Assembly (NCBI RefSeq): GCF_030384885.1
Contig: NZ_CP128613.1
Reading direction: 5' to 3' (one strand)
DNA length: 64,000 nucleotides
DNA from: Escherichia coli
GTDB lineage: Bacteria > Pseudomonadota > Gammaproteobacteria > Enterobacterales > Enterobacteriaceae
Of this stretch, positions 38,661 through 39,213 are shown one piece after another (within the stretch, counting starts at the first letter, position 1; every line of letters begins with the position of its first letter). A program made the position numbers and the translations under genes. The notes below the pieces were generated by a model, which made no database searches, was not told where the DNA came from, and worked only from the letters and a program-made list of their open reading frames with translations.

Positions 38661-38939
38661 CTAGTAGTAGTAAATTTGCGGATAACAGTCCGGGAACCAG
38701 ACGATTCCTTGCGGATCATCCCCCTGCATTACCCGATAACATTGGCGTCGATCATCGGCACGACGGCGAAGCGTAGTGTAGAGCCGCTTCCATTCATGAT
38801 CGCCCGGTGTACTGTAGTTTACCCAACAATCCATTGAAGGATGACGCCATTTACCTGTGAGTGTTGGGATCCCTGAATGCTTATGCGGCTTCGCTTTACC
38901 ATTACGATCCCGGTCTTTACGCGTATTAAATGTGGACAT
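38661..38939 (-). CDS. hypothetical small basic protein (92 aa)
   Basis: ORF in the island, co-oriented with the upstream TA pair and the 70-aa ORF. Confidence 0.5.
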   Translation of the reverse strand: MSTFNTRKDRDRNGKAKPHKHSGIPTLTGKWRHPSMDCWVNYSTPGDHEWKRLYTTLRRRADDRRQCYRVMQGDDPQGIVWFPDCYPQIYYY

Positions 38940-39000
38940 TTTTAGTCTCCTGCTAAGAGTTCTAAAAATGTGCTTCCTTAAAATAGTTCATCATTTTCCC

Positions 39001-39213
39001 TTAATTCGAATAGCGTGCTTTTGCACGAATTTCCGATACGCGGGGACCATTATGATAACGTCGATGTCCACACATCCAACAAGAGCACATACAGGGAGTA
39101 CGAAAGCAAACACCTGATGCTTTTTTGCTTCCATCGCCTGCTGTGCGATAACGACGGCGGATTTTTTTTAATCGCGCCATATGATGGCGACGTTCAGCAC
39201 GATTACGGGTCAT
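39001..39213 (-). CDS. hypothetical small basic Cys-rich protein (70 aa)
   Basis: RBS aggag 7 nt upstream of the ATG; basic N-terminus and Cys cluster CFRTPCMCSCWMCGH. Confidence 0.55.
   Translation of the reverse strand: MTRNRAERRHHMARLKKIRRRYRTAGDGSKKASGVCFRTPCMCSCWMCGHRRYHNGPRVSEIRAKARYSN

Follow-up and report, generated by a model that had tools for sequence, protein, structure and literature searches.

Two small basic genes beside a HigB2/NadS pair in Escherichia coli: a possible mobile cassette with leader hairpins over its translation start signals

At a variable spot of the Escherichia coli chromosome between fdhE/yiiF/yiiE and fabY, two short open reading frames (ORFs) follow a toxin-antitoxin pair on the same strand, which raises the questions of whether they are genes, whether they belong to the toxin-antitoxin operon and what they might do. 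The spot lies in a 64,000-nt stretch of contig NZ_CP128613.1 (assembly GCF_030384885.1), called the window below, whose sequence matches that of strain 2013C-4282 at 100% identity. We refer to the two ORFs as gene A (positions 39001-39213, minus strand; 70 aa, RefSeq WP_000197771.1, protein beginning MTRNRAERRHHMARLKKIRRRYR) and gene B (38661-38939, minus strand; 92 aa, RefSeq WP_000102977.1). The order on the minus strand is a HigB2-like toxin gene (39589-39900), a NadS-family helix-turn-helix (HTH) antitoxin gene (39298-39588; NF041265 at 60.7 bits against a cut-off of 60), gene A and gene B. The evidence below establishes A and B as genes. We consider the chances about even that they form an autonomous, horizontally mobile two-gene cassette of small, very basic proteins.

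Both A and B are real protein-coding genes under purifying selection. An ORF of this size is not significant by itself, since 67 ORFs of at least 30 aa overlap the 6 kb examined. What places A and B beyond chance is that they have homologues, at 40-76% identity, that are under purifying selection, and that RefSeq annotates a coding sequence for each in this strain. Orthologues were compared from one divergent E. coli as well as from Klebsiella, Salmonella, Lelliottia, Edwardsiella, K. oxytoca and Kosakonia. The ratio of nonsynonymous to synonymous substitution rates (dN/dS) was 0.06-0.24 for gene A, and for gene B it was 0.06-0.25 in close pairs and up to 0.44 in distant pairs. An AGGAG stands 7 nt before the ATG of each gene, bearing out the strong ribosome-binding site that an earlier, sequence-only reading of the window had ascribed to the 70-aa ORF. 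A lack of conservation in homologous islands, which that reading would have counted against these ORFs, was not seen; A and B are both conserved. The annotation pipeline PGAP often leaves gene A unannotated where it is intact, for example in strain Nissle 1917. Gene A contains two homopolymers, A8 (39160-39175, minus strand) and A6, and database variants (P0007, P0012-P0016, P0020, P0023, P0027 and P0028) carry one to three -1 slips there, some returning to frame before the cysteine cluster, by three separate slips, and others staying out of frame and losing it. These frameshift variants are probably long-read sequencing errors and not phase variation.

The gene A product is extremely basic (isoelectric point, pI, 11.45; 20 Lys and Arg against 3 Asp and Glu) and that of gene B is basic as well (pI 9.58), both as the earlier reading had noted. 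Gene A has cysteines arranged C36-x4-C41-x-C43-x-C45-xx-C48; the CxxC that had been reported is present, and the accompanying "CxxxC" is in fact Cx4C. Among family members R9, K16, G34, C43, C45, C48 and G56 are invariant, and A6, Y22, T39, P40, M47 and R52 are nearly so. C41 occurs in most members but is replaced in those of the OBP/2050HW type, and no histidine is conserved. The cluster is the best-conserved feature of gene A and would be compatible with the metal or nucleic-acid binding proposed for it. To judge from this pattern, gene A likely binds metal through CxCxxC and a fourth ligand, which could be C41 or a residue supplied by a partner.

Gene A gives a full-length match to the hidden Markov model of PHROG 4499 (E = 1.7e-13), in which its residues 3-68 of 70 align with positions 6-74 of the 88 in the profile, and tblastn and profile matches link it reciprocally to proteins of T5-like and jumbo phages. 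PHROG 4499 includes ORF053 (T5.055) of phage T5, with homologues in phages BF23 and Eps7, Erwinia phage Ea35-70, Pseudomonas phage OBP and Serratia phage 2050HW; the family carries no assigned function. Gene A shares with it an RRHH..R.K..R..Y helix, a TPCxCSCWMCG(N/H).R core and a C-terminal QE.R helix. T5-type members are 104 aa long, with an extra acidic C-terminal tail and a minimal 5-bp hairpin of anti-Shine-Dalgarno and Shine-Dalgarno sequence, whereas bacterial members have 70 aa. Enterobacterales members are paired with gene B, unlike those in the deposited phage genomes searched. The PHROG 4499 match was the only one obtained for gene A, Pfam, NCBIfam and PADLOC giving none, and the same was true of 38 family members run against all four collections. 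No zinc-finger profile in Pfam or the PDB matched gene A. Ribosomal_S21 (PF01165) did not match the window protein and met one of the 38 members at E = 0.017, below threshold. An hhalign comparison of the A and B families revealed no hidden paralogy. AlphaFold2 (AF2) predicted a basic N-terminal helix at residues 5-26 (predicted local distance difference test, pLDDT, about 82) and a C-terminal helix for gene A. PDB sequence and profile searches were empty, as was a Foldseek search of the PDB with the AF2 model.

The gene B family is previously undescribed. A word-indexed search for relatives reached only Escherichia and Klebsiella, and an exhaustive HMMER search of 1.8 billion proteins gave 69 cluster representatives at E<1e-3. 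In gene B the N-terminal part contains the motif MSTFNTRKDRDRNGK, the long helix includes W..R.YTT.RRRA, and the C-terminal tail reads G.DP.G..W....P.IYYY. The "long" forms (83-98 aa) start with MS.FNTRKDR..NGK, forms of 75-77 aa are missing a middle section, and distant forms read "MAHYKRKKPR...KPHIYYW" around the core P.WW.R.Y.TRPRR...R......G.DPDG..WP...KPH.YYW. In the AF2 model, residues 47-71 form a single long helix (pLDDT 96), and the segments leading from it to either terminus are extended; conserved, extended ends around a single helix suggest that gene B would fold only on a partner. Neither gene B nor ten of its relatives matched Pfam, NCBIfam, PADLOC or PHROG, and gene B found nothing in PDB sequence and profile searches or with Foldseek against the PDB. 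A "KPHIYY" match to Prp4 was rejected as chance (E = 1.3).

Relatives of gene B recur among phage tRNA genes. In 8 of 13 IMG/VR loci a gene of the B superfamily lies inside or against a phage tRNA array, with 1-27 tRNAs within ±5 kb, and a further relative (L027) is on a metagenomic contig with 17 tRNAs. The relatives of the "KPHIYYW" type (L027, L087-L090, L092, L095, L098, L099) are situated between tRNA genes, of which there are up to 27 in about 10 kb. They share the strand of the tRNAs at all these loci except L092, and at L090 the gene is flanked directly by tRNA-Val and tRNA-Glu. Other relatives are found alone on plasmids. The long type of gene B was not found in IMG/VR.

By tblastn the gene A family occurs in about 500 phage records, mostly of T5-like Demerecviridae, and in T5 and BF23 it is located in the early tRNA region. 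It is also present in the jumbo phages Ea35-70, OBP, 2050HW and KpLz-2_45, in Rhizobium, Achromobacter and Vibrio phages, in 135 IMG/VR stretches, and on 152 plasmids, most of them conjugative IncF plasmids of K. pneumoniae. Among about 100,000 species-representative genomes 53 carry it, belonging to the Enterobacterales, Chromatiales, Massilia, Nitrosomonadales and others. In 45 of these 53 species, as well as in phages and on plasmids, it occurs alone. Gene B is its commonest neighbour; in the 7-8 of 53 species that have it there, it follows gene A immediately and on the same strand. An A-then-B arrangement with a spacer of 40-60 nt was found in at least three diverged lineages and in unrelated contexts, namely defence islands, integrase-bounded islands, plasmids and prophage-like viral contigs. 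In Salmonella it adjoins either SNF2/AAA/S8-peptidase genes or a cluster of DndB, PAPS-reductase and SMC genes, in Lelliottia it adjoins EH-signature and SNF2 genes, and in Edwardsiella it lies between phosphotransferase system genes and a tRNA cluster. Salmonella IncFIB plasmids also carry the two genes, as do a few IMG/VR viral contigs; gene B was not found in the deposited phage genomes searched. The whole A-B cassette is present at 95% identity or more in 1,269 of 5,426 complete E. coli genomes. Although they belong to different families, Edwardsiella tarda and Kosakonia pseudosacchari have cassettes separated by a dS of just 0.25-0.39, which argues for recent horizontal transfer.

Two other neighbours of gene A were considered and set aside. 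Genes of 211 and 216 aa stand upstream of it in Edwardsiella and on K. pneumoniae plasmids, but they are mutually unrelated, and the gene on the plasmids is a piece of an IS3 transposase. GyrA directly upstream of gene A in four Chromatiales metagenome-assembled genomes was read as synteny and not as a functional link.

Do A and B belong with the toxin-antitoxin pair? The earlier reading placed both ORFs on the strand of the pair, which is correct, and suggested that they may form one operon with it; a functional tie to the pair is contradicted by their distribution. A-B occurs without HigB2/NadS in Salmonella, Lelliottia, Edwardsiella, Kosakonia, K. oxytoca and Citrobacter, and also in a divergent E. 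coli lineage (L006), where the two genes occupy the same fdhE-fabY spot and the pair is absent. In the scan of 53 species the pair precedes gene A only in Klebsiella, Escherichia and Pseudocitrobacter. Conversely, about 1,240 of the 5,426 complete E. coli genomes retain only a stump of about 107 bp, consisting of the gene A leader and the first 17 codons of gene A, which implies that A and B were deleted either long ago or repeatedly. In SE11, the single such genome inspected (L082, 3001-3107), the stump adjoins intact nadS and higB2. Because cassette and toxin-antitoxin pair are separable in both directions, A-B is not an accessory of the pair, and on this comparative evidence we regard their adjacency here as lineage history and not as a functional unit. 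Co-transcription of the four genes may still occur in this strain, there being no terminator between them; such read-through transcripts would be poorly translated, since a predicted hairpin hides the ribosome-binding site of gene A.

This hairpin (39220-39262, minus strand; identified from its fold, from family comparison and by the narrow covariance model R1, 57 bits) emerged when 130 nt upstream of gene A were aligned from loci with differing neighbours. It has two tiers, with 6-9 nt left between its end and the ATG, and its sequence in the window is ACUCCU-AUGAAA-GCGGCA-UAG-UGCCGC-CUGCUC-AGGAGU. The basal stem pairs ACUCCU (39258-39253) with the Shine-Dalgarno AGGAGU (39225-39220), and the apical stem pairs GCGGCA (39246-39241) with UGCCGC (39237-39232) around a UAG loop. 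Salmonella has the variant GGGGCA/UGCCCC, and Edwardsiella, Kosakonia, K. oxytoca and Serratia have GCGCGGU/ACCGCGC together with CCUCAUA/UAUGAGG. Much longer leaders, of up to -46 kcal/mol, precede gene A in Pantoea, Pectobacterium, Xenorhabdus, Massilia and Nitrosospira and in phages Ea35-70, OBP and 2050HW, and T5-like phages have a minimal UCUCC/GGAGA hairpin. The hairpin is thus kept, in differing sequences and registers, across Gammaproteobacteria, Betaproteobacteria and phages.

Among 61 distinct gene A leaders, 41 had at least four of the five Shine-Dalgarno nucleotides paired upstream, with a median z of -3.1 against shuffled sequences; 67 of 179 control genes from the same loci were paired, with a median z of -0.14 and only seven below -3 (Fisher p = 9e-5). 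The window leader has a z of -2.4, and about 26 further non-T5 viral loci have z < -3. Covariation was assessed in 18 leaders of a subgroup other than that of the window, from Pantoea, Pectobacterium, Xenorhabdus, Chromatiaceae and Photobacterium, aligned by MAFFT on sequence only. The 11-bp apical stem had 96% of its cells paired, against 34-56% for slid partners. Six of the 11 pairs had changed on both sides, and none of 500 shuffles reached the covariation score. The basal stem does not suit a single alignment because the register of the anti-Shine-Dalgarno arm differs among subgroups; in our view, this shifting of register while the Shine-Dalgarno stays paired is a sign that selection acts on occlusion. 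Rfam 15, including the ROSE and FourU thermometers, gave no match, the only hit being STnc470 on the other strand at 11 bits against a gathering threshold of 80. At -20 to -46 kcal/mol the leaders are also too stable to melt as a thermometer does.

Two further features of the gene A leader were examined. A candidate promoter inside the hairpin, TTCAGA-16-CATAGT in E. coli, was discarded as a general explanation, since the leaders of Salmonella, Edwardsiella and Pantoea do not share it. A candidate upstream ORF (uORF; 39249-39293, minus strand) of 12-14 codons, M(VM)PYRKHQHSELL, has its stop codon inside the 5' arm of the hairpin in E. coli, Klebsiella and Pseudocitrobacter, and analogous uORFs of 20-22 codons end at the equivalent position in phages OBP and 2050HW. 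Melting of the 5' arm by uORF translation was dropped as a general mechanism, since the uORF is absent in most lineages, and is kept as a lineage-specific possibility only. Among the uORFs compared (window, L015 and L016) the C-terminal peptide is similar, with HSELL or YSELM before the stop codon, and those of phages OBP and 2050HW contain HSEKL and YSEKL. This likeness may reflect a nucleotide motif, YAYUCNGAA, rather than the peptide.

The gene A leader occurs a second time, without a gene following, at 41030-41113 (minus strand; R1 35.5 bits), 1.8 kb from the first and abutting the stop codon of an alpha/beta-hydrolase gene (40087-41037). This copy takes in the hairpin and some 40 nt before it, a stretch that contains a nadS-like 3' end of diverged sequence, and we therefore read the copy as the remnant of another cassette and not as a mobile repeat. 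Across 665 kb of related loci, R1 detected no additional copy. A double copy is rare in E. coli, where the 2,510 genomes with a match gave 10 more places than records.

Gene B also appears to have a leader hairpin (38937-38970, minus strand). Counts of paired positions are suggestive of a structure in which CAUUUUUAG would pair with CUAAAAAUG, the last three bases of which are the start codon, and an inner pairing of CUCUU with AGGAG covers the Shine-Dalgarno. The compensatory variants GGUAAC/GUUACC and GUAAG/CUUAC were found in Salmonella and Lelliottia, respectively. Altogether 71% of cells were paired, against 26-49% for slid partners, and four pairs had changed on both sides. Solo relatives of gene B, on a small plasmid and beside IS3 elements, also have anti-Shine-Dalgarno hairpins.

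We propose that the leaders would hold off translation of A and B until some event opens or removes the 5' arm. In most lineages they would be far too stable to breathe, so translation would have to await removal or unwinding of that arm. Release could come from RNase processing, from translation of the short uORF in some lineages, or from a trans-acting factor; of these, processing specific for double-stranded RNA and a trans-acting factor, which could be A, would apply most generally. Once made, A, with its arginine-rich helix, and B would act by binding RNA, most plausibly tRNA or the ribosome, and in Enterobacterales the two would act together. RNA binding is suggested by the arginine-rich helix and conserved CxCxxC of A and by the non-globular prediction for B. 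The tRNA-array locations hint at a translation-related target, which we hold only tentatively because the link of gene A to tRNA genes comes from one phage lineage, the T5-like phages, and because tRNA regions collect accessory ORFs. Taken further, the idea would make A and B, with their self-occluding leaders, a hitherto unrecognised class of small RNA-binding effectors of phage origin that act on tRNA or the ribosome; lytic phages would employ them in or next to their tRNA arrays to protect or re-programme translation, and islands and plasmids would have taken them over as a gated two-protein module. We consider this extension rather unlikely.

The reservation about tRNA regions is one of several that weigh against this proposal. 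Pfam, NCBIfam, PADLOC, the PDB and Foldseek were all empty for function by homology. AF2 confidence was low (overall pLDDT 67 for A and 72 for B), and the cysteine loop of A, at pLDDT below 50, is effectively unmodelled. A four-ligand zinc site is not assured because only three cysteines are invariant. With regard to the leader, the basal stem had only 59% of its cells paired under R1, which was a weak test. The contrast in Shine-Dalgarno pairing (67% against 37% in controls) is modest, as most bases end up paired in a minimum-free-energy fold. The hairpin is missing from some 20 of the most divergent gene A leaders and from those adjacent to gyrA. Finally, no promoter for the A-B cassette was found in the window.

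Other explanations account for parts of the same evidence. If A and B were accessory genes of the HigB2/NadS operon, transcribed and acting with it, their co-orientation with the pair would be expected. Gene A begins only 84 nt past nadS, and a sequence scan of the interval found no promoter-like or terminator-like site. The same four-gene order recurs in Klebsiella sp. and K. spallanzanii, with the pair plus gene A in Pseudocitrobacter. We nonetheless regard such an accessory role as very improbable in view of the A-B cassettes without the pair in at least six genera and in L006, the loss of A-B from the stump genomes (with the pair intact in SE11, the one inspected), the solo occurrence of gene A in phages and plasmids, and the masking of its ribosome-binding site on any read-through transcript. 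In addition, A and B are intact in this strain even though the toxin has ATA as its start codon. Slightly less probable still is that the palindrome before gene A is a DNA-level element, such as a recombination site or mobile repeat, with the ORFs as passengers. The gene-less second copy, the orphan leader stumps in about 1,240 E. coli genomes and the keeping of structure more than of sequence, as in integron attC sites, would all fit this idea, but the 3' arm holds the Shine-Dalgarno 6-9 nt before the ATG in phages and bacteria alike, a fixed placement that argues for an RNA element and not a DNA element. The nadS 3' end on the second copy, which gives it the look of a cassette remnant, and the lack of other R1 matches in the 665 kb point the same way.

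The remaining two explanations concern what the proteins do. A, or A with B, could be a toxic abortive-infection or addiction effector whose mRNA is locked by its leader until stress or infection. A leader that sequesters the Shine-Dalgarno or AUG is shared with type I toxin mRNAs, the cassette occurs in defence islands (with Dnd/Ssp-like genes, Zorya-like EH-signature and SNF2 genes, type I restriction-modification systems and other toxin-antitoxin pairs), and so extreme a basic charge could be harmful on overexpression. A and B are, however, hydrophilic, with no hydrophobic segment; no antisense promoter-like site was detected, Rfam gave no small RNA above noise, and the component models of PADLOC-DB 2.0 matched neither protein. 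Strictly lytic phages and conjugative plasmids carry gene A alone, which makes a host-killing toxin without an antidote unlikely, and overall we rate a toxic effector as rather improbable. It is also unlikely, though a little less so, that A and B have no role with RNA and are small DNA-binding regulators or nucleoid-associated proteins, A being a zinc-finger-like repressor or excision helper. Both are basic, A has its cysteine cluster, the genes are often found beside integrases or at island edges, and A occurs in early phage regions, where host-takeover DNA binders are found. Set against this are the lack of a match to any HTH, ribbon-helix-helix or known zinc-finger profile, AF2 models without a compact domain, a cluster with only three invariant cysteines, and the recurrence of B relatives in phage tRNA arrays, which points to RNA.

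A few observations concern the surroundings of the cassette in the window. The start codon of the HigB2-like toxin gene (39898-39900, minus strand) is ATA here and ATG in GF60, Nissle 1917, SE11, Klebsiella and L007. The toxin may therefore be poorly translated in this strain, in which the antitoxin, A and B are intact. Convergent with gene B is a 179-aa ORF for a membrane protein (38054-38593, plus strand) with hydrophobic segments at its N- and C-terminus and no match in Pfam, PHROG, NCBIfam or PADLOC. We rejected it as a third partner, as its homologue (50% identity) is found only in other E. coli, where it lies divergently on the opposite side of the A-B cassette (L005, 6857-7393), and is absent elsewhere. 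Between this ORF and gene B, at 38624-38653, is a perfect 8-bp palindrome, AGACCGGT...ACCGGTCT, with a 14-nt loop that exceeded the limit of the terminator scan. A T-rich run follows this palindrome on the plus strand but not on the minus strand, and the 179-aa gene probably terminates there. This strain and GF60 share an insertion between the hydrolase gene and fabY, a 637-aa ORF (41206-43119, minus strand) without a Pfam match; RefSeq annotates the region as a "transposase" coding sequence and a truncated hypothetical pseudogene. In L006, a called 421-aa "gene" adjoining fabY (5009-6274) consists of tandem repeat units and is almost certainly spurious, spanning a cluster of repeats resembling repetitive extragenic palindromic (REP) sequences.

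Control by a leader hairpin that conceals the ribosome-binding site is familiar, and the leaders of A and B are a new instance of it. The mRNAs of type I toxins such as hok, tisB, zorO and aapA1 typically sequester the Shine-Dalgarno or AUG in this way, and occluding leaders also occur in the early transcript of the phage T4 e (lysozyme) gene and in the lambda N leader, which is processed by RNase III. The likeness lies in a stable local hairpin over the Shine-Dalgarno (A) or the AUG (B), so that translation should depend on processing, on a transcription start inside the leader or on melting; the A and B leaders differ in having no antisense RNA, conserved internal promoter, sequence similarity or Rfam family. 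As for the proteins, arginine-rich-motif RNA binders and small basic ribosome-associated proteins include the N peptides of lambda and P22, bS21, RMF and Sra, and some phages encode bS21. By analogy, A and B have short helical segments rich in Arg and Lys and are predicted to be largely unfolded alone; they show no detectable homology to these proteins, in which the cysteine cluster has no counterpart. The HigB2/NadS type II module is a same-strand neighbour here, but neither A nor B resembles a toxin or antitoxin and the distributions are uncoupled. No published account of either family was found in searches by PHROG number, by accession and for small proteins of the T5 tRNA region.

These results correct the annotation reflex of assigning A and B to the adjacent toxin-antitoxin operon. 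They add a cysteine-cluster family that defence islands have in common with plasmids and lytic phages, a partner family found again and again within the tRNA arrays of phages, and a covarying leader, hiding the ribosome-binding site, that is absent from Rfam. If A and B were indeed captured effectors acting on translation, the cassette could be a counter to toxins that cleave tRNA or mRNA, or an effector triggered by infection. If the present reading is right, an uncharacterised two-protein module whose expression is apparently locked by RNA structure would be carried by roughly one in four complete E. coli genomes, Nissle 1917 and many extraintestinal pathogenic strains among them, and a related gene A would be present in many Klebsiella plasmids and throughout the T5-like phages.

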